A DNA stretch of 64,000 bases from Raja brachyura (Eukaryota), in contig OY740787.1 in the NCBI GenBank assembly GCA_963514005.1, forward strand, positions 71,114,001 through 71,178,000, in the 5' to 3' direction. A program made the translations under genes and the position numbers. Below the pieces are notes generated by a model. That model ran no database searches and had not been told where the DNA came from. It saw nothing but the letters and a program-made list of their open reading frames with translations. The number at the start of each line of letters is the position of its first letter. Position 1 is the first letter of the stretch. Shown here one piece after another: positions 17,320 to 62,342 of the stretch.

Positions 17320-19303
17320 GATGTTCAGTCACTCTACACCTCCATGCCCCACCAGGAAGATCTTAAAGCCCACCATATCTTCCTCGACCACAGAACCAGC
17401 TAATTTCCATCTACTAACACTCTCCTCCGCCTAGCAGAGCCGGTCCTTACCCTTAACAACTTCTCATTCGACTCCTCCCACATCCTTCAAATCCAAGACG
17501 TAGTTGTGGGCACTCGCATGGGCCCCTGCTATGCCTGCCTCTTTGTATGATACGTTGAACAATTACTGTTGCAGGTGTACACTGGCCCTATCCCAGAACA
17601 CTACCTGCGATACATTGACGACTGTATCGGTGATATGTCCTGCACCCATGCAGAACTCACTGACTTCATCAACTTCACGACTAGTTTCCATTCAGCACTC
17701 AAATTCGCTTGGACCATCTCCGACATTTCCCTACGGTTTCTGGATCTCACTGTCTCCATCACAGGAGACAGACTATCGACTGACATCTATTACAAACCCA
17801 CTGACTCCCACAGCTACCTAGACTACACCTCTTCCAACCCTGCTTCCTGCACCGCAAGGCTCAGTGCTGGGACCCCAGCTATTTACAATATATATTATGA
17901 TCTGGATGAGGGAATTGAATGCAACATCTCCAAGTTTGAAGATGACACGAAGCTGGGGGGCAGTGTTAGCTGGGAGGAGGATGCTAGGAGGCTGCAAGGT
18001 GACTTGGATAGGTTGGGTGAGTGGGCAAATGCATGGCAGATGCAGTATAATGTGGATAAATGTGAGGTTATCCACTTTGGCGGCAAAAACAGGAGGGTAG
18101 ATTATTATCTGAATGGTGGCCGATTAGGAAAAGGGGAGATGCAACGAGACCTGGAAGATTGTTCCCGATGTTGGGGAACTCCAGAACAAGAGGTCACAGT
18201 TTAAGGATAAGGGGGAAGTCTTTTAGGACCGAGATGAGAAGATCTTTTTTCACACAGAGAGTGGTGAGTCTCTGGAATTCTCTGCCACAGAAGGAAGTTG
18301 AGCCCAGTTCATTGGCTATATTTAAGAGGGAGCTAGATGTTGCCCTTGTGGCTAAAGGGATCAGGGGGTATGGAGAGCAGGCAGGTACAGGATACTGAGT
18401 TGGATGATCAGCCATGATCATATTGAATGGCGGTGCAGGCTCGAAGAGCCGAATGGCCTACTCCTGCACCTATTTTCTATGATTCTAAAGAATCTATCCC
18501 CTACTCTCCTATCCTCCGTCTACGCCACATCTGCGCCCAGGATGAGGTGTTCCATAGCAGGTCATCAGAGATGTCCTCATTCTTTAGGGAACGGAGGTTC
18601 CACTCTACCATTATAGATGAAGCTCTCACTAGGTCATCCTCGATATCCCGCAGCTCCGCTCTTGCTCTTCCTCCCCCCATTCGTAACAAAGACAGAGTCC
18701 CCCTTGTCCTCACCTTCCACCCCATCAGGTGTCGCATACAGCACATAATCCTCCGACATTTTCGTCATATCCAATGGGATCCGACTACTAACCACATCTT
18801 CCCATCTCCACCCCTTTGTTCCCTCCGCAACTCCCCGGTCAACTCGTCCCTTTCCACCCAAAACACCCCTTCTCCAGGTACTTTCCCCTGCAACCACAGG
18901 AGATGCAACCCCTGTCCCTATACCTCCCCCAGAACTCTGTCCAAGGACACCGACAGGCTTTCCAGGCGAGGCAGATGTTCACTTGCACCTCCTCCAACCT
19001 CATTTACGCCCAGCGTAAATTGGAGGAAAAGCAACACATATTGTGCTTGGGTAGCTTGCACCCCAGTGGTTGGAACATTGACTTCTCTACTTCAAGTAGC
19101 CCTTGCTTTCCCTCTCTCTCCATTGCCTCCCCCTTCCCAGCTCTCCTACTAGTCTTACTATCTCTGACTACATTTTATCTCTCTGTACCGCTCACTCCCT
19201 TGACATCAGTCTGAAGAAGGGTCTCGATCCAAAACTTCACCCATTCCTTCTCTCCAGAGATGCTGCCTGTCCACCTGAGTTACTCCAGCATTTTGTGTCT
19301 ATC
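17320..19303 (+). mobile_element. Penelope-like retroelement (degenerate RT and thumb region), interrupted by a CR1
   Basis: DVQSLYTS, MGPCYACLF, RYIDDCIG, YYKPTDSHSYLDYTSS.PASC//KESIPYS..LRLR motifs typical of PLE RT; characteristic 3' end. Confidence 0.85.
17851..18487 (+). mobile_element. CR1 LINE nested in the Penelope element, with an internal deletion
   Basis: QGSVLGP, KFEDDTKLGG, KCEVIHFG, then a jump to the 3' end; CR1 3' UTR. Confidence 0.9.
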
Positions 19304-26165: not shown

Positions 26166-27064
26166 CTGCAGATATAAATGTTAAAAACATGTTACAGCAT
26201 TGCAATAACAAACTCTAATTCTTTAAGCATGAAGTGTAGAGGTGCCCCCTGAAATTCAAAAATGAAGGACGTTAGGGTGATAGAAACTAACAATCCATGG
26301 AGTGACTGTGGAGAAGAAATGATGGTTAAAAGGTGTTAGCTGACCAGTGGCTGTGCTCAAGGTAGTAAATGATAATACTTCAATGAATGAAATTCAAAAT
26401 GTATTGTCGTGAAGTGCATAGATGCATGCAAGTAATTGATATAAAAATATTTTTTGTCCTGGAACAAAGTAGTTGACAAAATGTGATATTAGGAGGAAAA
26501 ATATCAATATTCAGTTGTCTTCTCGTTATGATATAGTGATGGCAATGATAAATATCTAGCATTTCCTCAAAAGTGGATATGGGGATGAAAGCAATATTGC
26601 ATTAGTAAAAACTTAAAAAGATGGGTGATGTTAATTAATTGTTAATATTAAAACATTAGGGGGTCATAATTGAATATTCACAGTAGTCTTTTAATACATG
26701 AAATTAACTTTAAAAGCTCTTTATTACTGTCAGTGAAAGCTTATGAAGATCACATCAATAAGAAACAATTTCACATTACATTTTTTGCAATCAAGATTTA
26801 AAAGTAGCAATGCCTAATTGATGAAATAAACTGATGTGGTCTTATCAAGCTTTGACGTCTTGTATATAGATACTAAATGGGTAACAAAATTACTATTTTA
26901 TCATTAAAATGTGGGAAAGGAAGGGAAAAGGAAGAATGGGTAGGAAATATTTAGTTACGTTAATTTATTAGCATAAACTAAAAACAATGGTTAACTATTT
27001 TGTGAGTTGAACGGATTAGACTCTAGAGTTCATAATAATAAAGATTTTATCCCCATAATCCAAC

Positions 27065-30000
27065 CTCTTATTACAACTGTGAGGTGTGCAGAAGTTGTTG
27101 ATTTTCCTGTTTCATTCAATGCCTCGCAGATATACTCTCCTTGATGTTCCTCTTTTTGTACTTTGCTGATTATAAGTGAGTATGTGTCAAAATCCTGAAA
27201 ACATTTGAACTCATTTTTTGAGGAAATTTTCTCTCCATTGATATACCAATTTACAGCTTTAACTTTCTGTATGACTGTGCTAAATATCACTTGGTTATCT
27301 TCATCTGCAGTGGCATCAGTAAGCCCCTTAATAATTATTGGATTGTCTTTAGTAGCCTTTATTAGTATTTCAGTCTGCATTTTCATTTTAGAAACATGAG
27401 TAGCTGAATTGTCCTCCGTTTTCTCCTCTATTTTAAGAATATTTGTCGGGGGTTCTCTAAGCACAGACATGGAAGGGGTAATATCGATGCACACAGTTTC
27501 TAACCTATCAAATGACTTTGGAATTGTACCTAGCTGTTCAGCTATGAAAGCCTGCTGCTGCTCACGAATGATGGAACAAAAAGCTGCTGTCAGTTCCTTT
27601 TGTAAGTCAGCTTTCTTGGGGTAATCCGCGTCACAATTCAGAGTTATATCTATTGGAGGATTTGCATTGGTAATTTGATATGTATGTAAAGTGTATTTAG
27701 GTTCAATTTGAACTTTTAATTCCTTAATTTTTATTTCTTCTATGGAGCTAAATGTAATGGAGGAAATTGCATGATGCTTACTTGCTAAAGCAGATTTAAG
27801 TGCTTCCTTAAACTGTGTACCTATACCTAAAGTGATGGTTTGGGGAATTGTAATCTTAAATGCCAGTTCCTTATGGAGTGCTCCATCTTCTTGTATTACA
27901 TGTGATTGTAGTGTTTGATCCGGCTGCTTCTTCAACTTCAGCATTGTTTGTTCTGATCCCGATGAATGTTCCTCTTCAATAATCTGTTTTTCTTGAAGTG
28001 GAAATCTTACTGCCTGTTCTTCTTGGATTCTTACTGCAAAATCTTCTTCTGCAGCCTCGAGCATATTGGTACTTTTCATAGACGTAGTATTTTCTTGAAC
28101 CTGCACAGAAGCTAAAGGTAATTTTGGTTCATACATATCCCCACAGGTTTCTACACTAATGCCTTTGAAAATAGCAACAGAACCATCTTCAACTATCATG
28201 CTGTCTGTTGTAGTGCTGAACTGTTTGATACTGTCATCAGACTTAGTTATCAATGCATGCTGTTCTTTCTCTTCAATTGTAAAAATGTTCTCTTTGATTT
28301 TTTGTACAGGTTGAGTCGCAGATGGGAGATACCTTTGAGGAAGAGGATGAGTTTTGGCTTCAGAATGTAAACTTTCAATTTTCATTTCAAGGGATTTAGA
28401 TTGTTCGTCCAACAGTTCTGCGTTTTCTTCTACAACCACAGCATTGCTGTATGCCGTCTCAAATTTACCTGCTGCAATATGAGCAGCTGGTTTCACTTGG
28501 GGTAGCATACCTTCTTTATGAAAAATACACAGACTTTTTATGTGATGAGAATGTAAAGTGGATACATGTTCTTTTGTTGGTTTAATTTTTATGCTGTTCT
28601 TTACATCAGATAACTGGGTTGTGTATTCATAAGGTACCAGGTGCTGCTCTTCTGCTAGTAATGAATGTAGACAAGTTGGACTCTTTCTCAGATCAGCTTT
28701 ATCTTCTATGGGTACTTCAAAAGTAAAAGGACATTCTTTGGGTAGAGTATCTTGTTCCTTGACAATCTGTAAATGCAATGATTCCTTTTCTTCTGGTTTT
28801 GATGTCATTGAGATTGCACAATCTAATCCAATTAGTATTTTGGTGTATTCACTTCGAAGTGGTTGTTTCTCTTCTGCATTTAAAGCAGTTTTCACAAGTT
28901 TATCTTTCATTACTAAAGCTTGTTGTGATCCAGCTTTTTGTACCTTCAAGATAGACTCCTTTAGGGTTGACTTGTGGCTTTCAGTAACAGATGCCAAGAA
29001 TGGCTTTGGTAATTCTTTTAATGACTTTGATTCCTTTCCAGCATCTATTGGTTGTATCTCTTCTGTAATTTCATCCCTTATTTTTTTCTTTTCCATTGAT
29101 ACAGTTGTACAAACCTCCATTTTGTTTTCTTTTTGGATTTTGCCTTGATGCCATGTGGGAACTTCAAATATAAACAAAGGTTCTTTAAGGGGTTCTTGAA
29201 GTCCTTCAACTTTGGAACTGTGTACAGTGTACCTTGGCTCTGTTTTTGCCATTTCTACAACATTAAGAGCTGTAGATTTGGGGCGACAAATTACATCTTT
29301 CTCTGGCATACCTATTTCCACTGTTACTGGTTTAAAAGTTGCAATAGGCAATCCTTTAATATTAAAGATTGCTTCCTTTGGAATTTCAGTCTTTTCCTCA
29401 ACTGTGGGTACATAGTTTTTTGATTGTACTTCTGTGCTTGGTACTTTGAATACTGGCAGGCCTTTGATCGGTTCATAGTGTTGCTCAATAAAGCCCAGAC
29501 TCTCCTGTGTTGCTTGAGAATGCATTATCATCTGTTTCATTCCTGAAATAGTTGTTTCTGTTGCAGAGATTTTTTCCTTATTCAAAATGGCCATCTGTTC
29601 ACTGTGGACAAACTGTTTTTCTTCAGAGGATATTGTACACGCCAATTGATCCGGCTCCTGTAATTCAGCCTGAGTATCACCAGGTGATTTTGCGGTGAAT
29701 AAACACAACTCAACGGCTTGATCACGAATGGTCCTTTCGTAAAGCTTCTGAACCATTTCTTGCCTTGAATGCTCATCAGCAAAAGTATCGCTCATCACAA
29801 TTAGTTCTGCAGTGCAAGTTGCTTCTCCAAATGTGTTAAATGCTTTGCAGGAATACAAGCCACTATCCTTCTTCTGTATATTATGAATAGTTAATGAACC
29901 AGAACCATTGGAGTTGTAACTCAGGTTGTGTTGCACACCTGGAAACATCTGGTACTTTCCCTTATACCATAATACCTCTGGCATTGGTTCTCCTGTCACT

Positions 30001-30652
30001 ACATACTCAAATTTACCAAGCATCCCTTTTAGACACTGCAAAGATTTAAATTCTTTTAAAAACTGTGGTGCCTCACCCTTGGATACATATTGGTATTCTG
30101 CTTGTTGTATTAACACAACTTCTTTCGATAGGGGCTCTTTGTTTATCTTTTTTTCAGGCAGTTTTGCAACTGGAGGCTTTGCAGCTGATTTCCTAAACCC
30201 ACCCATACCTTCCTTTGGTTTGATTTTCAGATGTGCACTACATGAAGTTTTTCCAAGCACATTACTAGCTGTACAGGTATATTCTCCCTCATCTGTAAAT
30301 TTGGTGTAACCTATAATTAGACTATATTCCGCCTTATCATAAACAAACTTGTGATTTGATGAAGGTATCAATTTGTTACCATTATAAAACCACTGAATAG
30401 TGGGTTCTGGGAATCCACTGGTAGTGACAGAGAATTTAGCTACATCTTCCACAACTACCTCCATACTAGAAATATGTTTCATGAATACTGGCACAGATTT
30501 TAAAGGCTCAGCATCAGTTTTTATGTCCAAGATTTTTGATGAAACTGGAGTTTCAGGCCTGAGTTCAAATGTTTTGTCAGACACATGAAGTTCACTTGTG
30601 TAGAAATCTTCCCTCTTATCTTCAGCAGCGATGATTACAGCGCTAGAATATT
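27065..30652 (-). CDS. ttn: Titin cardiac N2B exon (I24, I25, N2Bus, I26; human exon 49 equivalent), 3588 bp
   Basis: atacag|AATAT acceptor, AGAG|gttgga donor; EYSSAVII start, PVFMKHIS Ig, PQFLKEFK Ig, AVRIQEEQAVRFPL, HQGEYICEALNETGK. Confidence 0.95.
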
Positions 30653-34923: not shown

Positions 34924-34929
34924 TTTAAT
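34924..34929 (-). terminator. Possible variant poly(A) signal ATTAAA for the Novex-3 isoform
   Basis: ATTAAA on the minus strand about 100 nt after the Novex-3 stop. I saw no canonical AATAAA in the next ~1 kb. AT-rich context makes this weak. Confidence 0.25.
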
Positions 34930-47219: not shown

Positions 47220-50200
47220 TAGTGTTATATAATGAACCGGATTTGATAAAGGACCTCGAGGTTAATGAGCCATTAGGAGGCAGTGACCATAACATGGTCA
47301 GGTTTAATCTACAATTGGAGAGGGAGAAGAGTATTTTGTTGTCTCTGTACTGTACACTGACAATGACAATTAAAATTGAATCTGAATCTGAGTAGATCAG
47401 AGGTGTCAGTGTTGCAGTTGAATAGAGGGGACTATGGGGCCATGAGGGGGAAGCTGGCCAAAGTTGACTGGAAAGGTACACTAGCAGGGATAATAGTGGA
47501 ACAAAAATGGCAGGTGTTTCTAGGAATAATACAGAAGGTGCAGGATCAGTTCATTCTTCGAAGGAAGAAAAATTCCAAGGGGAGAAAGGGTCGACCATGG
47601 CTGACAAGGGACGTCAGGACAGTATAAAAATTAAAGCGAAGAAGTACAACGGAGCAAAGATGAGTGGGAAGCAAGAGGATTGGGTAATGTTTAAAGAACA
47701 ACAGAAGATAACTAAAAAGACAATACGGGGAGAAAAGATGAGGTATGAAGGTAAGCTAGCCAAGAATATAAAGCAGGATAGTAAAAGCATCTTTAGTTAT
47801 GTGAAGAGGAAATAATTAGTTAAGACCAAAGTTGGACCCTTGATAATCGAAAAAGTGAATTTATTATGGGGAACAAGGAAATGACAGAAAAGGAGTTGAA
47901 CAGGTGCTTTGGATCTGTCTTCACTAATGAGGACACAAACAATCTTCCTGATATAGTAGTGGCCAGAGGATCTGGGGTGACGGAGGAACTGATGGAAATC
48001 CAGGTTGGTTAAGAAGGTTCAACTGTTGGGTATAAATGCAGGAATAGCAAGATGGATTCAACAGTGGTTGCATGGGAGAAGCCAGAGGGTAATGGTGGAT
48101 GGCTGTTTGTCGGGTTGGAGGCAGGTGACTAGTGGGGTGCCTCAGGGATCTGTGTTGGGTCCTTTGTTGTTTGTCATGTACATCAATGATCTGGATGAAG
48201 GGGTGGTAAATTGAATTAGTAAGTATGCAGATGATACCAAGATAGGGGGTGTTGTGGATAATGAAGAGGATTTCCAAAGTCTACAGAGTGATTTAGGCCA
48301 GTTGGAAAAATGGGCTGAAAGATGGCAGATGGAGTTTAATGCTGATAAATGTGAGGTGCTATACCTTGGCAGGACAAATCAAAATAGGACGTACATGGTA
48401 AACGGTAGGGAATTGAAGAATACAGTTGAACAGAGGGATCTGGGAATAACCGTGCATAGTTCCTTGAAGGTGTAATCTCATATAGATAGGGTGGTAAAGA
48501 AAGCTTTTGGTATGCTAGCCTTTATAAATCAGAGCATTGAGTATAGAAGCTGGGATGTAATGTTAAAATTGTACAAGGCGTTGGTGAGACCAAATCTGGA
48601 GTATGGTGTACAATTTTGGTCGCCCAATTATAGGAAGGATGTCAACAAAATAGAGAGGGTACAGAGGAGATTTACTAGAATGTTGCCTGGGTTTCAACAG
48701 CTAAGTTACAGAGATAGGTTGAATAAGTTAGGTCTTTATTTTCTGGAGCGCAGAAGGTTAAGGGGGGACTTGATAGAGGTCTTTAAAATGATGAGAGGGA
48801 TAGACAGAGTTAATGTGGACAAGCTTTTCCCTTTGAGAATAGGGAAGATTCAAACAAGAGGACATGACTTTAGAATTAAGGGACAGAGGTTTAGGAGTAA
48901 CATGAGGGGGAACTTCTTTACTCAGAGAGTGGTAGCGGTGTGGAATGAGCTTCCAGTGGAAGTGGTGGCGGCAGGTTCGTTGGTATCATTTAAAAATAAA
49001 TTGGATAGGCATATGGATGAGAAGGGTATGGAGGGTTATGGTATGAGTGCAGGCAGGTGGGACTAAGGGAAAAAAGTTGTTCGGCACGGACTTGAAGGGC
49101 CGAGATGGCCTGTTTCCGTGCTGTAATTGTTATATGGTTATATGGTTAATCCAAATTAGGCAGGAAATGGTGTTAGATAGACTGATGGGACAGAAGGCTG
49201 ATAAATCCCCAGGGCCTGATGGTCTGCATCCCAGAGTACTTAAGAAAGTGGCTCTAGAAATCGTGGATGCATTGGTGATAATTTTCCAATGTTCTACAGA
49301 CTCAGGATCAGTTCCTGTGGATTGGAGGGTAGCTAATGTTATCCCACTTTTTAAGAAAGGCGGGAGAGAGAAAACAGGGAATTATAGACCAGTTAGCCTA
49401 ACATCGGTGGTGGGGAAGATGCTGGAGTCAATTATAAAAGATGAGATAGCCGAACATTTGGATAGTAATAACAGGATCGGTCCGAGTCAGCATGGATTTA
49501 CGAGGGGGCAATCTTGCTTGACTAATCTTCTGGAATTTTTTGAAGATGTAACTAGGAAAATTGACAAGGGAGAGCCAGTGGATGTAGTGTACCTGGACTT
49601 TCAGAAAGCATTTGATAAGGTCCCACATAGGAGATTAATGGGCAAAATTAGGGCACATGGTATTGGGGGTAGAGTGCTGACATGGATAGAGAAGTGGTTG
49701 GCAGACAGGAAACAAAGAGTAGGGATTAACGGGTCCCTTGCAGAATGGCAGGCAGTGACTAGTGGGATACCGCAAGGCTCGGTGCTGGGACCGCAGCTAT
49801 TTACAATATATATTAATGAACATATTATATTATTATTATATAACATATAATTATTTACAATGTACATCAATGATTTGGATGAAGGGATTCAAAGTAGCAT
49901 TAGCAAATGTGCAGATGACACAAAGCTGGGTGGCAGTGTGAACTGCAAGGAGGATGCTATGAAAATGCAGGGTGACTTGGACAGGTTGGGAGAGTGGGCA
50001 GATGCTTGGCAGATTAAGTTTAATGCAGATAAATGTGAGGTTGTCCACTTTGGTAGCAAAAACAGGAAGGCAGATTACTATCTAAATGGTGTCAAGTTGG
50101 GAAAAGGGGAAGTACAATGGGATCCGGGGGTCCTTGTACATCAGTCTATGAAAGTAAGCATGCAGGTACAGCAGGCAGTGAAGAAAGCGAATGGCATGTT

Positions 50201-50842
50201 GGCCTTTATAACAAGAGGAAACTAATATATGAGCAAAGAGGTCCTTCTGCAGTTGTACAGAGCCAGAGTGAGACCACACCTGGAGTACTGTGTGCCGTTT
50301 TGGCCCCCTAATTGAGGAAGGACATTCTTGCTATTGAGCGAGTGCAGCATATATGTTTACAAGGTTAATTCCCGGGATGGCGGGACTGTCATATGCTGAG
50401 AGAATGGAGCAGCTGGGCTTGTACACTCTGGAGTTTAGAAGGATGAGAGGGAATCTCATTGAAACATATAAGATTGTTAAGGGCTTGGACACGCTAGAGG
50501 CAGGATACATGTTCCCGATGTTGGGGGAGTCCGGAACCAGGAGCCACAGTTTAAGAATAACGAGTAAGCCATTTAGAACGGAGACAAGGAAACACTTTTT
50601 CTCATTGGGAATGGTGAGCCTGTGGAATTCTCTGCCTCAGAGGGCGGTGGAGGCAGGTTCTCTGGATGATTTAGAGAGAGAGCTAGATAGGGTTCTTTAA
50701 AATAGCGGAGTCAGGGGATATGGGGAGAAGGAAGGAACGGGGTACTGATTGGGGATGATCAGCCATGATCACATTGAATGGCAGTGCTGGCTCGAAGGGC
50801 CGAGTGGCCTACTCCTGCACCTATTGTCTATTATCTATTATA
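47220..50842 (+). mobile_element. Long CR1 LINE (ORF2 from the endonuclease end through RT) inserted in the Tc1
   Basis: [53 protein letters not shown]; attgtct tail; possible TAATT duplication. Confidence 0.9.
48003..49147 (+). mobile_element. Second CR1 subfamily nested within the first CR1
   Basis: [13 protein letters not shown]...LVRPNLEYGVQFWSP; (gttatatg)n tail; AATCCA duplicated at 47997-48002 and 49148-49153. Confidence 0.9.
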
Positions 50843-52055
50843 TAATTGCCACCTTAATGCAGGTGTAAGACAGTTCTCAGCACCTAGTCTTTCCTCCAGT
50901 CTTTCCATCACCTTTGGAAACTTTTATTGCTGTTTATCAACATGACGATCAAAGTCAAAGAAGCCATTATGAGACTGAGAAACAAGAATAAAACTGTTAT
51001 AGAGACAACAGCCAAACATTAGGCTTACCAAAATCAACAGTTTGGAACATAATTAAGAAGAAAGAGAGCGCTGGTGTGCTTACTAATCGCAAAGGGACTG
51101 GCAGGCCAAGGAAGACCTCCACAGCTGATGACAGAAGAATTCTCTCTATAATAAAGAAAAAAACCCAAACACCTGCCCGACAGATCAGAAACATTCTTCA
51201 GGAGTCAGGTGTGGATTTATCAATGGCCATTTCAAGACAATGATCCCATACATACTGCTAAAGCAACAAAGGTGTTTTTCAAAGTTAAAAAATGGTCAAT
51301 TCTTGAGTGGCCAAGTCAATCACCCGATCTGAACCCAACTGAGCATGTCTTTTATATGCTGGAGAAAACTGAAGGGGACGAGCCCCCAAAACAAGCATAA
51401 GCTAAAGATGGCTGCAATACAGGCCCGCCAGAGCTTCACCAGAGAAGACTCCCAACAACTGGTGATGTCCACGAATCGCAGGCTTCAAGCAGTCATTGCA
51501 TGCAAAGGATAAGCAAAAAAATACTAAACATGACTACTTTCATTTACATAACATTGTTGTATCCCAAACATTATGGTGCCCTAAAATGGGTGGACTATGT
51601 ATAAACACAGCTGTAATTTCTACATGGTGAAACCAAAATGTATAAAAATGGCTTTTATTAACATCTGACAATGTGCACTTTAACCACGTGTGATTTTTTC
51701 TATTACAAATCTCAAATTGTGGAGTACAGAGGCATATAAATAAATGATGGCACTTTGTCCCAAACATTATGGAGGGCGCTGTAACTAATGAAAAAGCTTC
51801 AGGAAATGGTAGGTACTAAAATAAGGTAGAATGGTGTTCAGCAAAACAAGCACAAAATACACATGCTTTCACAAATGAACACTGTTGCTGACCAATTGTG
51901 CTGATGTAGAAATGAATGCCGCAGGCAATGATAAAAAACATTATTAAATTAAGAAAACAACCGCAAGCAGGAAAGTGCTTCAAAATTCACATCAGCAAAA
52001 CAGAAATGTAAAAATAACATAAGTAGCAGCAAATATAAGCAACATTTTTAATTAC

Positions 52056-53197: not shown

Positions 53198-53632
53198 ATT
53201 GTCTTTGTGAAATAGTTAGGAGAGAAGATTGTTGGCATAGTTGATTCTTTCACTACGGAAGGACACGACCAGAAAAAACATTCACTGCTCGCAATGCCAT
53301 CTGTGGCAGCTCAGGGAATTTCAATTGAGCTCTCATAATTTTGTCTGGATTATAGGGGTGGACAGACCATCAGTTGCCAGTAAACAGATGTTCAACCAGC
53401 ACCATAATCAGCTGGGAATGTAGGGGATTAGCAGAAAATGCTAGAAATATTTGACAAGGAATCATTCTCAGCAAATTCTGCATTTCCACATTTAAATATA
53501 CATGTGCAGTCTCCAAAATCCATTCCAATGAGCAAAATCTTAATACTTGACCTGTGTATAAAAGCACAATTTGAAGAAAAGGACTATTCCACATGACCAA
53601 CAGTGTAAGTTAAGGCCCATGTCCCTTCCTAC

Positions 53633-54885
53633 TTGATGTAACTAGTAGAGTGGATAAGGGAGAACCAGTGGATGTGTTATATCTAGACTTTCAGAAGGCT
53701 TTCGACAAGGTCCCGCATAAGAGATTAGCATACAAACTTAAAGCACACGGTATTGGGGGTTCAGTATTGATGTGGATAGAGAACTGGCTAGCAGACAGGA
53801 GGCAAAGGGTAGGAGTAAACGGGTCCTTTTCAGAATGGCAGGCAGTGACTAGTGGGGTGCCGCAAGGCTCAGTGCTGGGACCCCAGCTATTTACAATATA
53901 TATTAATGATTTGGACGAGGGAATTCAATGCAACATCTCCAAATTTGCAGATGATACCAAGCTGGGGGGTATAGTTAGGTGTGAGGAGGATGCTTGGAGG
54001 CTGCAGGGTGATTTGGATAGGCTGAGTGAATGGGCAGATGCATGGCAGATGCAGTACAATGTGGATAAATGTGAGGTTATCCACTTTGGTGGCAAAAACA
54101 TGAGGGTAGACTATTATCTGAATGGTGGCAGATTAGGTAAGGGGGAGATGCAACGAGACATGGGTGTCATGGTACACCAGTCATTGAAAGTAGGCATGCA
54201 GGTGCAGCAGGCAGTGAAGAAAGCAAATGGTATGTTAGCATTCATAGCGAAAGGATTTGAGTATAGGAGCAGGGAGGTTCTACTGCAGTTGTACAGGGTT
54301 TTGGTGAGGCCACACCTGGAGTACTGCGTACAGTTTTGGTCTCCAAATCTGAGGAAAGACATCCTTGCCATAGAGGGGGTACAGAGAAGATTCACCAGAC
54401 TGATTTCTGGGATGTCAGGACTTTCATATGAGGAAAGATTGGATAGACTCGGTTTGTACTCGATGGAATTTAGAAGATTGAGGGGGGATCTTATAGAAAC
54501 CTACAAAATTCTTAAGGGGTTGGACAAGCTAGATGCTGGAAGATTGTTCCCGATGTTGGGGGAGTCCAGAACAAGGGGTCACAGTCTAAGGATAAGGGGG
54601 AATTCCTTTAGGACCGAAATGAGGAAAACATTCTTTACACAGAGAGTGGTGAGTCTCTGGAATTCTCTGCCACAGAAGGTAGTTGAGGCCAGTTCATTGG
54701 CTATATTTAAGAGGGCGTTAGATGTGGCACTTGTGGCTAAAGGGATCAGGGGGTATGGAGAGAAGGCAGGTACGGGATACTGAGTTGGATGATCAGCCAT
54801 GATCACATTGAATGGCGGTGCAGGCTCGAAGGGCCGAATGGCCTACTCCTGCACCTATTTTCTATGTTTCTATGTTTCTATGTTC
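53633..54885 (+). mobile_element. Young 5'-truncated CR1 LINE with an uninterrupted 377-aa ORF2 C-terminus
   Basis: YLDFQKAFDKVPH, FADDTKLGG, LVRPHLEYCVQFWSP; (tttctatg)3 tail. Confidence 0.95.
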
Positions 54886-55599: not shown

Positions 55600-56760
55600 G
55601 ACTGATGGATTAGAGGGAAAATTGGAAAAGAGAGGTGAAAAGTGGGGCAAAGACTTGCAAGTGGTAAGTGGATAGAGGTGAGGGGAGTTTGATTGGCAGA
55701 TGGGTGGAGTAAGTGACAAAGCAAGAGATAAAAAGGAGGCAATATGGGATAGCTATGGGTGAAAGGAATAATTGGCTATTATATTACTGTTTGTTTCACA
55801 GGGAGGGGAAATAAGAGACATAAAAGGGGCACCTCAGGGGCGAGAGATGAGCGTTTGGAGGAGAAAGGAGCATAGGTGGCTGGGTGGTTTATGATGGGGA
55901 GGGAGAAATATGTGCACTACAGAGTGTGCACACGGGAAAGAGAGGGGATATTACTTGAAATTGGAGAATTCAATGCTCATACTGTTGGGTTGTAAGCTAC
56001 CCAAACAGAACACGAGGAGCTGTTCCTCAAGTGGCCTAATGCTAAGGACAGAAAGTTCAGTATGGGAATGGGAAGTTAAAATGGTTAGCAACTGGATGAT
56101 CCAGCAAGCCTTGGTGGACAGAGTGCAAGCATTGGGCAAAACGGTCGCCTAGTATTTGATTGGTCTCGCCAATGAATAGGCCATGTTGGGAGCACAGAAT
56201 GAAGTAGACAAAGTTTGAAAAGGTGCTCGTTAACCTGTGTGTCACCTGAAAGGGTGCTGGGCTCCCTGGAAGGATGTGAGAGAGGTGTAGGGACAGGTGT
56301 TATATCGCCGGCAGTTGCAGAGGAAAGTACCTGGGAAAGGAGCAGGTTATGTGGGGAGGGATGAGTGAACCGAGGAGTTGCAAAGGGAATGTTCTGTATG
56401 GAAAGCAAATATGGTTGGGGATGGAAAGATGTGAACAGTAGTGGGATCACGATGAAGGTGGCAAAAACGTCAGAGAATTTAATGTTGGATGCAGAGTCTG
56501 TAGTGTGAAAGATGCGGACAAGGGGAACTTTATCCTTGTTCCAACATGGGGGAGGGGGAACAATAGCAGAACTGCAGGACACAGAAGAGACATGGCTGAG
56601 GGCTCCATCCACAGCAGCAAAGAGGAAACCCCATTCACAGAAGGAGGACATTTTGGATTTTCTAGAATGCAACTTGGGAGCAGGTGCAGCAAAGACAGAT
56701 ATTGGGAATAAGGATTGGTGTCCTTGCAAGAGACAGGCTGAAAGAAGTGTAGTCAAGGTG
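55600..56760 (-). mobile_element. Degenerate Penelope-like element (GIY-YIG endonuclease region)
   Basis: NKDKVPLV, FIGETNQILGDRFA..LHSV...PVANHFN on the minus strand, frameshifted. Confidence 0.75.
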
Positions 56761-56887
56761 ACTTTCATTGGATTGCTGTGGAATTTAGAATATGACAGTC
56801 GATTGAGGCTCTTACTACTTTTATTCTTTTTCTTTACGCTTTACTATGAGCATCGAAGTATTATTTCATTGTGGAGATGAAGTTTAT

Positions 56888-57551
56888 AGTGAAGAAAGCG
56901 AATGGCATGTTGGCTTTTATAACAAGAGGAGTTGAGTACAGGAGCAAAGAGGTCCTTCTGCAGTTGTATAGGGCCCTAGTGAGACCACACCTAGAGTATT
57001 GTGTGCAGTTTTGGTCCCCTAATTTGAGGAAGGACATTCTTGCTATTGAGGGAGTGCATCGTAGGTTTATAAGGTTAAATCCCAGGATGGCGGGATATGT
57101 CATATGTTGAGAGAATGGAGCGGCTGGGCTTATATACTCTGGAGTTTAGAAGGACGAGAGGCGATCTTACTGAAACACATAAGATTATTAAGGGTTTGGA
57201 CACGCTAGAGGCAGGAAGCATGTTCCCGATGTTGGGTGAGTCCAGAACCAGGGGCCACAGTTTAAGAATAAAGGGTAAGCCACTTAGAACGGAGATGAGG
57301 AAACACTTTTTCCTTACAGAGCGTTGTGAGTCTGTGGGATTCTCTGCCTCAGAGGGCGGTGGAGGCCGGTTCTCTGGATACTTTCAAATGAGAGCTAGAT
57401 AGGGCTCTTAAAGATAGCGGAGTCGGGGGATATGGGGAGAAGGCAGGAACGGGGTACTGATTGGGGATGATCAGCCATGATCACATTGAATGGCGGTGAT
57501 GGCTCGAAGGGCCGAATGGCCTACTCCTGCACCTATTGTTTATTGTCTATT
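56888..57551 (+). mobile_element. CR1 LINE 3' fragment
   Basis: VKKANGMLAFI...LVRPHLEYCVQFWSP; attgtct tail. Confidence 0.9.
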
Positions 57552-59740
57552 CTTCAGTTATTTTGTTCCCTATAGAAAACAGCCTGGATTACTTTTTGAT
57601 TTTTCTGTTTTAGTAAAAGTGCTTCTGTTTTTTTAATTGCTACTTTGTTTCCTCTTGTTTAACTTCTTGTTTTGATCTAAATGGATACTGGAAAGATTGA
57701 CACATATTCCATAAGGATCATGAGCAACTCTAGTTACTGCTGCAAATTATGTAAAAATCCTGTTATAAGATTCTTGATAAAAGATTCCAATATATTAAAA
57801 ATGATAAATTCAGTATTTGGCAATCTAGAACAGGAACAATTTGAAATAATCCCAAACATTGTTTGCCTTAATGTGAATGTTTCCCACTGAGAATATAGTC
57901 TGGACTTCCAAGCCTCATGAATAAAATGTATTTTTTTTAACCTTAAGTATAATATATGTACAACTTTCAAAACTTTAGACCAAAATAAAGTGAAAATAAA
58001 TCAAAAATTGAAGACAAAGCATTCTCACGCTGCACGTCGCTGTCAAAACTTTACGTACACTATATGCTTGTAAAAAAATTGATTAATGAAAGATATTGAT
58101 ATTTTTATTTTGAATCAACACGAAAGAAACAAAATTAGCTGTGGGCCAGTGACCATTCTAAAAACAAATATATTTTTAAAAAACTGTTTTAATTTAATTA
58201 GTGTTATGAACTATGAAATTGAAAATGCCATCAATAAGCGAGTTTGGTATTACAACTGCGCATTCCCAGGTCGAGGGTTATTCGGGATAAACATTCTCGC
58301 CAGCTGAGCTACCGTGTGTGTACGGACCTGCGTATTCATTTCAATGAGATCTATAAATAAATGTATCCGTCAAATATGTCAGCAGTAGGCCGCAGCGTAC
58401 TGCAGGTTACACAAATCCACAATTGTGTCTATTTCACTTATTGACTCAATACAGCACCAGCCTTGAAAACGCAAGAATGTCTGGAACAAACCTGTCAATT
58501 ATCACATCCCTGGTATTAACCTGTCACACCCATTCAAATTCGATATTGATTTACTCGAATTAGAAGTTGTGCGGTCAACCAATTTGATACAGTCATTACA
58601 TTCCTATCTAACCAACTTTCCCGGATTGAAGGAAACAAGGAGAATGTGCTGTGTGGGGGTAGGTTGGAAAGTTCAGATTGGATTCTAACAGGCTGGTTAA
58701 ACCTTCAAGGTAGGTTGGCTTAAATAGAGATGCTGTCGCGTTAACCTCTGTGATTGGTTCCAGTCTGTCAGGGCCCACAGTTGGGAGCCGGGTCCGGGTG
58801 ACCGGGCGTTGATAATTATGAGAATTTGTAGCCATTTGAACCACAGCCAAACTAGAGGCTTCACTCAGGAGTGGGTCGCAGCTCCCTAGCTCACGGGACC
58901 TGGTCTCGCTCTCTTTGAAGTACGCGTCGCCCGCCCTAGCGAGTGGGCAAACGCGGAGCCAACCCGTAATAAGAGTGGGTGCATTTTCTCAGTCAGACTT
59001 TGTCGACAGTTGGGATGGGGGTCTGGGAGAGAGAAAGCTGGCGATGCCACACAGACGGAACAGTTTAATAACGACACATTAAAATCCACCCTTTGGCCAC
59101 CTGCAACCTGGGCTGATCTGATCTGACAGCCCTCTCGCAAGCTCACTGAGTGCAGAACCTAACGCAGAACCTCTCTTTGGGTAACACCTGCACAAAGAGC
59201 CTCTGTTAACAAGAGCTGGCGAACTGTGCTGGTCAACGTGCACTTGGCGAGATGGCTGGGGGAAACACACCGCAACCACCGCAAACTTGGAACAGCACAG
59301 ACCCTCCACTCAATCTATCCAATGCTAAAGGGCAGGTATTTTGCAGTTAAATGTCTTATATAGGATTGGCGGCTCCGTCACAGGGCCAACCCTGTACTCA
59401 GTTTTCCTCGGAGAATAATCTTTGCCTTAATAGTACATTCACACCACCTGCAGTTAAAGCATCAGCCCACATCACACTGATGCAGTTGCTGCCTTCCTCA
59501 GATTAAATATATTTTTACACATAAATTATGAATAAAGATAAGAAAATGTTTCAAACACATGTAATATTTTCTTATTCCAGTAGCACATTAAGGATTAAGA
59601 AAATAATAAATTCTTTAACTTTTTGAATATCTCATAATTGCAGATTAATGAACTGAACTAGAATTGGGACTGTGTAAGTAGTGTGTGAACAGCAGAACAA
59701 GAAAGGAAGTGATTGAGTTGACAGAATTCTAGGTTAATTC

Positions 59741-62342
59741 TAGAATTAACCCAGGATCATATAGAGCGATTGCCCTTCTAAATACAGATCAAAAAATATT
59801 AACTAAGGTTTTATCTCGGAGATTAAGTTTAGTGATCTCTAAATTAATACATTATGATCAAACAGGTTTTATTCCAAAACGCTATTCATCCCATAATCTC
59901 AGACGTTTGTTTAATATTATATATTCAAAAAGAATACGGGACATGGAACTAGCGGTTATATCGTTAGATGCAGAAAAGGCTTTCGATCAGGTGGAATGGT
60001 TATATTTATTTAATATAATGGAAAAGTTTCATTTGGGGGATAGATTTTGTAAATGGGTAAGAATTTTATATTCGAATCCTACAGCAAGAATATTGACTAA
60101 TCAAATGCTGTCAGCTAAATTCAAGCTCTCTAGGGGATGCAGACAGGGATGTTCATTATCGCCCTTACTGTTCGCTTTGGCGATAGAACCCTTGGCGGAA
60201 AAAATTAGATCTGAACCTGAAATATATGGCTATAATACTGATACAACAATTAATAAAATATCTTTATATGCAGATGATGTTTTGATTTATATTACAAAAC
60301 CGGAAATCAGTATTCCCAACCTGTTTAATGTTATAACTAAGTTTGGTACATTTTCTGGATATAGGATTAATTGGAATAAAAGTGATATTATGCCAATAAC
60401 AGGAATAAATTTAAATATACTATAACAATATCCACTAAAAGTAGTTACAGATAAATTCAAATATTTAGGGATTAATGTAACTAAATCTTATAATTCATTA
60501 ATTAAATCTAACTATCCTCAATTATTAGATAAACTTAGAAAAAATATTTTATATTGGAAAACACTTCCTATATCTATGATCGGTAGAATAAATGCCATAA
60601 AGATGTTTTTTTTACCACAACTGTTATATTTGTTTCAGGCTATCCCTTTTTTTCTCCCGAAAACCTTTTTCAAAAAAATTGATAATATTGTTAATAGTTT
60701 TATTTGGGATTATAAAAATCATAGAATAAGTAAAAAACATTTATGTAAATCTAAGATAAATGGAGGATTAGCACTCCCAAATTTTTTATATTATTTTTGG
60801 GCTGTTCAGATTAAGAATATGAATTTTTGGTGGGTAAATATGGATCATGAACCAACATGGTTACATATAGAAAAGGAAGACTGTCTACCTTTCAATGTAG
60901 GCTCGATTATCTTTGCACCAAAGGAAGTACAAAAAAAAATTTATAGGGACAACCCAATAATTCATAACAATAGACGTATTTGGAAACAAATTGTTAAGAC
61001 TCTACATTTAGACAACCTCTCACTCAGACTTCCAATTATGAATAACCCATTATTTAAACCTTCTATATTAGATGGGGGGTTTAGACACTGGGATGATTTA
61101 GGAATTACAAGGATAGAACACCTTTATAGAAAAGGAAAATTTATTTTATTCCAGGAGTTACAAGATATCTATGGATTATCTCCACAACATTTGTTTAGGT
61201 ATTTACAAATTAGAGATTATATTAAATCCAATACACAAGATTATAAAAATAAAGAACCAGGATTGTTAGATGAATTGTTTAATTTACACCCAAATACAGA
61301 AAAATTAATAGCTTATATATATAACATCATTTTGGATAAGGAGAATCCAATAACTGAAACATATCGTCAAGCATGGGAAAATGAAATTGAATTAGCTATA
61401 ACAAAAGAAAACTGGGAAGAAAGTTTACAACGAATACATCGATGCTCATTAAACGCCAGGCATACATTGATACAATTCAAAGTATTATATAGATTACATT
61501 ATTCGAAAACTAAATTAAATAGTATTTTTCCTAATCTCTCTATTTGTGATAAATGTAAGAATTTAGAAGCAAATTTAATACATAGTTTTGTTACATGTCC
61601 TAAATTGAATTATTACTGGTCAGAAATTTTTTAAGTTATTTCTGAAGTTCTTAAAGTTAAATTGGACCCTGAGCCAAAGTTAATAATATTTGGAATTCCG
61701 GACTTAAATTTGATTCTTACAGTAAATCAAAGAAATTTCTTTGATTACTGTTTGATAATTGGGAAAAAAATTATATTGAAATTTTGGAAGGGAACATTAT
61801 CCCCCACAATCAAAATGTGGGCAGCAGAGATGTTGGAGACGTTACATTTGGAAAGAATTAGATTTGTCCTATTGGACAAATATAATTCCTTCGAACAGAT
61901 ATGGTCTCCATATATACAGTATTTAGAGAAGTAGCTGTTCTTGGCAACACAGCTCGGCGGACACCCTACGGGATTTGATGAGAATAATTCATTTTCATAT
62001 TGGGATTAGTATACTCTTATCGATATTATCATTTGTAATAGTTTTATTAACAATACATACCGTTGTTTTTCATTATATATATATATTTTTTTTCACTTTT
62101 TTGTTAACCTTTTTCTTTTCTCTTTTCTCTTTTCCTTCTTATATATAATCAAATTATTATTTAATCACACTCTTAATGATTTATAACTGCTCTATTCTTT
62201 CTCTATCTTTATTTCTAAAAAAATAGAAGATAAGTATTATTAATGTTTTAGTTGTATAAAAATTGAATTAAGTTGATGTTTGTAAAGTGGTTTAAAACAT
62301 TGTAATTGATTAACTTTAATAAAAAAATATTTAAAAAAAAAA
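59741..62342 (+). mobile_element. L1-clade LINE, 5'-truncated, with poly(A) tail and 18-bp TSD
   Basis: SYRAIALLN, DQTGF, LDAEKAFD, RQGCSLSPLLF, YADD, C-terminal C-x2-C...H...C; AATAAA then A-tail; agaattctagRttaattc at 59723-59740 and 62343-62360; two premature stops. Confidence 0.93.

Follow-up and report, generated by a model that had tools for sequence, protein, structure and literature searches.

The N2B "unique" sequence (N2B-us) of skate titin is a degenerate tandem array of units of ~74 residues within the titin N2B exon, as had been proposed in the preliminary description of this locus, and both the period test and the comparison with homologues agree on that. The array keeps a fixed period and register with suppressed indels, is old, and its end corresponds to a folded domain. 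We see an evenly balanced case for the further reading that the N2B-us is an old array, in register throughout jawed vertebrates, of about twenty half-units of ~37 residues that pair into units of 74 residues, and works as a spring mostly predicted to be disordered, with evenly spaced sites folding on binding, likely for the LIM proteins of the FHL family.

The titin N2B exon

The skate titin gene occupies the minus strand of the window (the whole stretch of 64,000 nucleotides that was analysed) as consecutive Ig exons along with several exons of very large size, and the DNA flanking the window holds the remainder of the gene, from the Z-disc end through the kinase region. The open frame 30707-27033 (-) encodes three I-set domains (Pfam) that flank an 824-residue insertion. 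The exon 30652-27065 (-), with AG at 30652 and GT at 27064, both in phase 1, comprises 3588 nt, and its length of 1196 codons, given earlier, is borne out. Its features are as follows.

27065..30652 (-), titin N2B exon, a probable cassette exon (Ig, Ig, N2B-us, Ig): open frame, AG/GT in phase 1, three I-set stretches, skipped in spliced contigs of a related organism
30222..30491 (-), first Ig domain (I24 position): Pfam I-set, ORF residues 73-162
29802..30068 (-), second Ig domain (I25 position), ends approximate: Pfam ig stretch 238-297 and alignment
27324..29795 (-), N2B unique sequence of 824 residues, net charge -25, containing the array
27072..27323 (-), third Ig domain (I26 position), ends approximate: Pfam stretches 1139-1217

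This architecture (one large exon in which a long insertion separates a pair of Ig domains from a third) matches that of the N2B element, and the position of the exon, downstream of a six-Ig terminal exon pair resembling Novex-3 and upstream of further Ig exons, fits the place of N2B between Novex-3 and the constitutive I27 exon. The insertion is homologous to the vertebrate N2B-us, with 23 phmmer matches at E <= 0.001; those looked up by name are titin-like proteins of Rhinoraja and Leptodactylus, and the mammalian clusters include Bos mutus and whales. With 87% identity over the insertion, a titin-like protein of Rhinoraja longicauda is the nearest entry, and the homologue P0049 is colinear, as judged by eye, with the human N2B-us sequence.

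Spliced contigs from runs X19 and X20 join 43643 to 26167 and then to 25075, with both the Novex-3-like region and the N2B exon skipped. These contigs come from two of the eight runs examined, both belonging to one study of a related organism with the tissue not on record, and no contig including the N2B exon was seen among the spliced contigs of the eight runs. From the Ig layout, the AG/GT ends in phase 1, the titin flanks, and the homologues, the exon 30652-27065 is identified as the titin N2B exon. By analogy, the skipping contigs may represent a skeletal-type transcript, as in the elephant shark, whose N2B is described as expressed in the heart and skipped in skeletal muscle (PMC12241362); for mammalian N2B, both expression in the heart and extensibility are known (PMC2150553).

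The Novex-3-like region (window 42461-35035, minus strand) encodes two plus four Ig domains followed by a stop, with AATAAA at 34929, and is interrupted by a 101-nt GT-AG intron in phase 1 (window 38566-38466, minus strand); the human Novex-3 is a single exon. Intronic frames on the plus strand (window 17504-19211, 47367-51397, 53614-54780, 56442-57399, 59733-61931) are, presumably, broken LINE-type reverse transcriptases and a Tc1-like transposase, judging by their motifs.

The repeat and its register

The five unit starts proposed in the preliminary description, 29246, 29021, 28799, 28577, and 28355 (-), lie in one frame at spacings of 75, 74, 74, and 74 codons, with the quoted peptides present at each of them. 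The shared residues are in place too, namely KE at 21-22 in all five units, FEVP at 27-30 in units 1 and 3, and EE at 50-51 together with E58 in units 2-4, and the looser units follow in register, from 28139 (U6), 27932 (U7), and 27710 (U8). The array, listed below, is larger than noted earlier, with four more half-units upstream of 29246; their spacing is looser (31-39 residues), and they are absent from mammals.

29247..29663 (-), four degenerate upstream half-units: anchors at ORF residues 370, 409, 445, 476; held-out template z 3.7-5.1
29022..29246 (-), U1 (75 residues): frame, shared residues, unit profiles
28800..29021 (-), U2 (74): frame, shared residues, unit profiles
28578..28799 (-), U3 (74): frame, shared residues, unit profiles
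28356..28577 (-), U4 (74): frame, shared residues, unit profiles; second half predicted helical
28140..28355 (-), U5 (72): frame, shared residues, unit profiles
27933..28139 (-), U6 (69 here, 74 in most homologues): anchors z 4.3, 3.5
27711..27932 (-), U7 (74), second half being the start of the folded domain: hhalign 38-88% to U1-U5
27513..27710 (-), U8, first half shortened: hhalign 79-88% to U7; anchors z 3.2, 5.1

Pairwise identity among the five units amounts to 5-15 of 74 residues (7-20%). The self-similarity was compared with shuffled controls, as had been suggested: a five-unit statistic, optimised over periods 40-120, has its best period at 74 with a score of 54, above the maxima of 36.8 in 300 residue shuffles and 45.7 in 10,000 five-residue block shuffles, none of which reaches it. 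Among single ungapped self-matches, the best also lies at lag 74, with a score of 65 where 200 shuffles reach at most 60, and the spectrum has a second period at 37 residues, half of the first (z 4.7). For the skate sequence taken by itself, plain autocorrelation at lag 74 has z 2.5, under the family-wise threshold, and a leave-one-out HMM clearly recovers two of the five units. At the DNA level, identity at lag 74 is raised at codon position 2 (0.425 vs. 0.297 +/- 0.035) and not at position 3, and Tandem Repeats Finder reports nothing at period 222. The region has a fixed period above composition controls, reproduced in homologues, as expected of a degenerate tandem repeat.

Comparison of unit profiles (hhalign) yields values of 4.6-96.7% for U1-U5 and U7, with all 30 ordered pairs above the best control (3.6% in 60 column shuffles, 1.7% in 56 reversals). 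U6 is an outlier, with 0.2-30% to the other units, yet its cross-species conservation is the highest (35% identity), and it may be a specialised binding site. U6 (window 28139-27933) also contains a short predicted helix and adjoins a site matching human S4010. Three related organisms carry in-frame insertions of 9 nt and 3 nt relative to the window (at 27958 and 29295), and the 9-nt insertion restores part of the usual U6 length.

Sliding templates built from U2-U5 give 21 peaks at z >= 3, of which 20 lie on a grid of 31-39 residues and 12 lie outside the template. This grid runs from ORF residue 370 to 1057, covering nearly the whole N2B-us with ~20 half-units of ~37 residues. Each half-unit ends with a glutamate anchor, kept in most species at most positions; first halves roughly follow the pattern EP-hydrophobic strand-LPKE, and second halves, small-residue run-EE-x3-L-x2-E, with hydrophobic columns alternating.

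Among known systems, the PPAK repeats of the PEVK region (26-28 residues; PMC8553726) and the Z-repeats (PMC12241362) are, like the N2B array, tandem non-Ig motifs of titin with lineage-variable copy number; according to the latter source, they vary by exon splicing, whereas the N2B array lies inside one 3.6-kb exon and has a two-level period of 37/74. Nor is the array proline-rich, and it is distinct from PEVK in composition, with P, E, V, and K together making up 33% compared to about 70% in PEVK. Periodic motifs are also found in other sarcomeric giants, e.g., the simple repeats of nebulin, which have ~35 residues and bind actin along the thin filament, and the SEK repeats of crayfish I-connectin, which have ~68 residues; the N2B array resembles both in being periodic, and no sequence match to either came up in the Pfam scans and the homologue search. 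In particular, the Pfam scans of the array listed no match of the nebulin type, though a remote relation may exist.

The repeat array of the N2B-us, present in mammals too, is apparently undescribed. No earlier description was found in the literature searched, with older cross-species titin comparisons outside its scope; such a repeat is not mentioned in the available portions of PMC12198301, PMC8553726, PMC11033294, PMC6850032, PMC7261855, and PMC2150553. The study of elephant shark connectin (PMC12241362), which deals with a cartilaginous-fish titin, analyses Ig super-repeats and Z-repeats and, in the text available, has nothing on repeats inside N2B.

Age, constraint, and loss of half-units

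The homologue set comprises the matches of the phmmer scan (23) and 30 mammal-type N2B proteins from a second search. Its named sources are limited to the skate, the frog, and clusters that include cattle and whale; "teleost-like" and "sauropsid-like" are labels assigned from the sequences. Full-length insertions were analysed in 41 proteins, 15 non-mammalian and 26 related mammalian ones, leaving out fragments (P0003, P0009, P0012, P0014, P0015, P0018, P0020, P0022, P0023, P0069), the irregular P0070, and P0051 and P0063, in which the script did not pick up the start motif. The last-Ig motif occurs six times in P0070 (gray whale, 5472 residues), with four of the copies at a 562-residue spacing, which reflects either a tandem duplication of the N2B-us or an assembly artefact. 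The frog protein P0007 (Leptodactylus fuscus) appears in the alignment without the second Ig domain.

The top period is 73-75 in 14 of the 15 non-mammalian homologues, with none of 60 shuffles reaching it, and in 16 of the 26 mammalian sequences, seven of which are likewise unmatched by any of 60 shuffles. When templates made from half-units absent in mammals were applied to a mammal-only profile, seven of the ten top matches fell on predicted anchors (three of them within the folded domain). A tree of 46 units, drawn from six species and built on few columns, has each of U2-U8 forming one side of a branch, six with strong support, and leaves U1 unresolved. As the units cluster by position and not by species, the array predates the split between cartilaginous and bony fishes; therefore, the skate retains the ancestral form, and the loss of units took place in mammals.

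Spacing within the array is constrained. Per 100 columns, the array has 0.62 indel openings, compared with 3.55 for the N-terminal flank and 5.06 for the C-terminal one (66 pairs of 12 long sequences in one MAFFT alignment, which is more reliable in the array than in the flanks); the array and the N-terminal flank are equally diverged (30% identity), and indels are about six times rarer in the array. Accordingly, U2-U7 measure 74 +/- 1 residues in most long homologues at 25-35% identity.

Outside the N2B-us, no relative of the array was seen: a search of the skate genome for a paralogue returned one match, the array itself, and there was none in the other exons of the window or in 340 kb of flanking titin DNA. 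The N2B-us matches no Pfam family at E <= 1 and no PDB sequence at E <= 10; two ESM Atlas queries yielded no usable match, and a word-index search among longer proteins found none in 5664 candidates, which is weak evidence.

The preliminary description had attributed the length of the skate exon to extra repeat units. However, the long form is common to the teleost-like, the frog, and one sauropsid-like homologue, and a skate-specific expansion is ruled out by the grouping of units by position across species in the tree. The expectation that length differences would be multiples of ~74 residues failed as well, as none is 74 or 148. The large losses are of 36, 38, 38, 38, 43, 52, 82, 92, and ~234 residues, four of them near one 37-residue half-unit; this is only suggestive of half-unit deletion, since two of the 36-38 cases may sum smaller deletions. 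Of the ~20 half-units, mammals keep ~13 and the sauropsid-like cluster 11 (about seven and nine lost, respectively), and the N2B-us has 824 residues in the skate vs. 572 in human, so that the skate has approximately seven more half-units. Mammals also tolerate register-breaking deletions (43, 82, and 92 residues, and small ones), and thus the spacing is not essential in mammals. A longer non-mammalian N2B in a more compliant heart is already in print (rat, 876 residues; turtle, 1302 residues; PMC11033294), and the heart of this skate would, judging by the exon length, have a longer spring.

The folded domain and the possible function of the array

In a 580-residue model made by AlphaFold2 with 49 sequences, ORF residues 962-1060 are the only part that folds (helix, helix, three strands, helix); pLDDT is below 50 for 391 of the 580 residues, with no confident fold for U1-U6.

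27528..27824 (-), predicted folded domain: AlphaFold2 pLDDT blocks 73-91; aligns with mammalian sequences and with the domain of PMC11530556

In human, the N2B-us likewise lies between I25 and I26 and contains a 115-residue domain, the rest being disordered (Sun et al. 2024, PMC11530556). The predicted skate domain, with three strands between two helical regions, ~100-115 residues, and a position near the C-terminal end, matches this published domain at the level of the model. It spans the half-units 7B, 8A, and 8B, the last three of the array. With an HMM of U1-U5, the domain reaches more than 5 bits in 34 of the 41 sequences and in none of the 41 reversed ones; single-sequence scores of the domain against the repeats are weak (6.2 bits in the skate; 2.6 and 2.9 in two fish-type homologues), and hhalign of the whole domain to U3-U4 gives only 22%. 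Hence, by sequence profiles, the folded domain is the end of the repeat array. The array accounts for where the domain reported in 2024 came from, a domain of unclear significance according to its authors (PMC11530556); the rest of the human N2B-us is treated there as an unstructured peptide, and no internal repeats are described in the accessible text, whereas the skate sequence shows an array. Foldseek with the 580-residue model found no match at E <= 0.001, and the best VIA-align Z was 4.2.

U1-U6 are predicted to be disordered and their second halves to be helix-prone, as the second halves are predicted helical both in the folded domain and in U3/U4. Together with the construction of the domain from the same half-units in register, and with the alternating hydrophobic columns and few indels, which would fit a structural constraint, this might mean that each 74-residue unit keeps the terminal fold (helix and strands) in a weak form, the fish-type N2B-us being a string of marginal beads that unfold at a few piconewtons. 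We consider this unlikely, given that AlphaFold2 shows no confident fold in U1-U6 and that no unfolding step is seen when the human N2B-us lacks the domain (PMC11530556). Nor was a latent fold predicted for U3-U4: a 114-residue piece cut to the domain register gave two helical stretches and coil only, with pTM 0.30.

We favour, at the even level stated above, a docking array. Spacing that is constrained in the absence of a fold would point to a partner of fixed length: each half-unit would dock such a partner when the spring is stretched, the spacing being kept for docking, and the docked half-units would fold on binding, the partner most likely being LIM proteins of the FHL family. Lineages could then adjust spring length and site number together through the loss of half-units, largely at the N-terminal end. 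An extended half-unit, taken at 0.36 nm per residue, is ~13 nm long. With LIM domains spaced by ~3 nm (PMC11530556), this would match the length of some four and a half LIM domains, close to that of the LIM chain of FHL2. FHL2 is reported to bind the human N2B-us at many sites, in its disordered part as well as in the domain once unfolded (PMC11530556). Against docking in register, the predicted sites have 3-5 residues with linkers of 5-15 residues and are not described as periodic in the available part of that study (PMC11530556). Three FHL-family genes are recognised by their exons in the skate genome (L052/L053, L054, and L055/L056), the first being FHL2-like by its nearest named proteins and read as the FHL2 orthologue.

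Compared to the docking array, it is rather improbable that the register is a leftover, without present function, from old duplications within the exon by which an entropic spring grew longer. Low identity of the skate units, the loss of seven and nine of 20 half-units in mammals and in one sauropsid-like lineage with off-register deletions accepted, and the predicted disorder of most of the region are consistent with such a leftover, but the constancy of U2-U7 length, the scarcity of indels, the anchor glutamate kept at most positions, and similarity at codon position 2 and not 3 speak against it.

Still more doubtful is that the half-units bind successive actin subunits or tropomyosin in the manner of nebulin, or zip neighbouring titins in register. 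The repeat length is similar to that of nebulin, strict spacing suggests a periodic partner, and N2B lies in the I-band beside thin filaments; however, a review of work on mammalian sequences reports no direct binding of the N2B-us to actin (PMC8553726), overexpressed middle N2B leaves thin filaments intact, unlike the N-terminal Ig part, also for mammalian sequences (PMC2150553), and the net charge of -25 and the lack of nebulin-type Pfam matches do not agree with it either. Chance or composition as the source of the periodicity, which could be argued from the subthreshold autocorrelation and the three of five held-out units not clearly recovered in the skate alone, is practically negligible in view of the 10,000 block shuffles, the same period in 14 of 15 non-mammalian homologues, and the profile controls.

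Much studied as a spring and a signalling hub of the heart, the N2B-us has been regarded as unique and largely without structure. The repeat register provides a map of it, in which it is likely an array of docking sites at regular intervals and not a uniform elastic cord. The register allows for unit-sized constructs, for comparison of equivalent phosphosites and missense variants, and for testing directly what underlies the many binding places of FHL2, and the known difference in N2B length between fish, turtle, and mammals becomes a countable loss of modules.

As a broader and more tentative proposal, which we hold to be somewhat doubtful when taken in full, the N2B-us of all jawed vertebrates would be a 37/74 array with the half-unit as an FHL dock, the known force-sensing domain would be the last three half-units folded on themselves, S4062 and S4099 would be equivalent sites, and mammals would have stiffened the spring by deleting seven of the twenty half-units. 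In the near-human homologue, the human-numbered anchors are near 62, 93, 131, 167, 205, 237, 273, 311, 348, 384, 421, and 458. Human S4062 and S4099 (epitopes from PMC7261855) are 37 residues apart, S4062 lying two residues ahead of the 7A anchor and S4099 one residue ahead of the 7B anchor. Ser or Thr occupies these places in 73% and 96% of mammalian sequences and in 8% and 25% of the long forms; being mostly mammalian, these residues look like a mammalian use of the grid.
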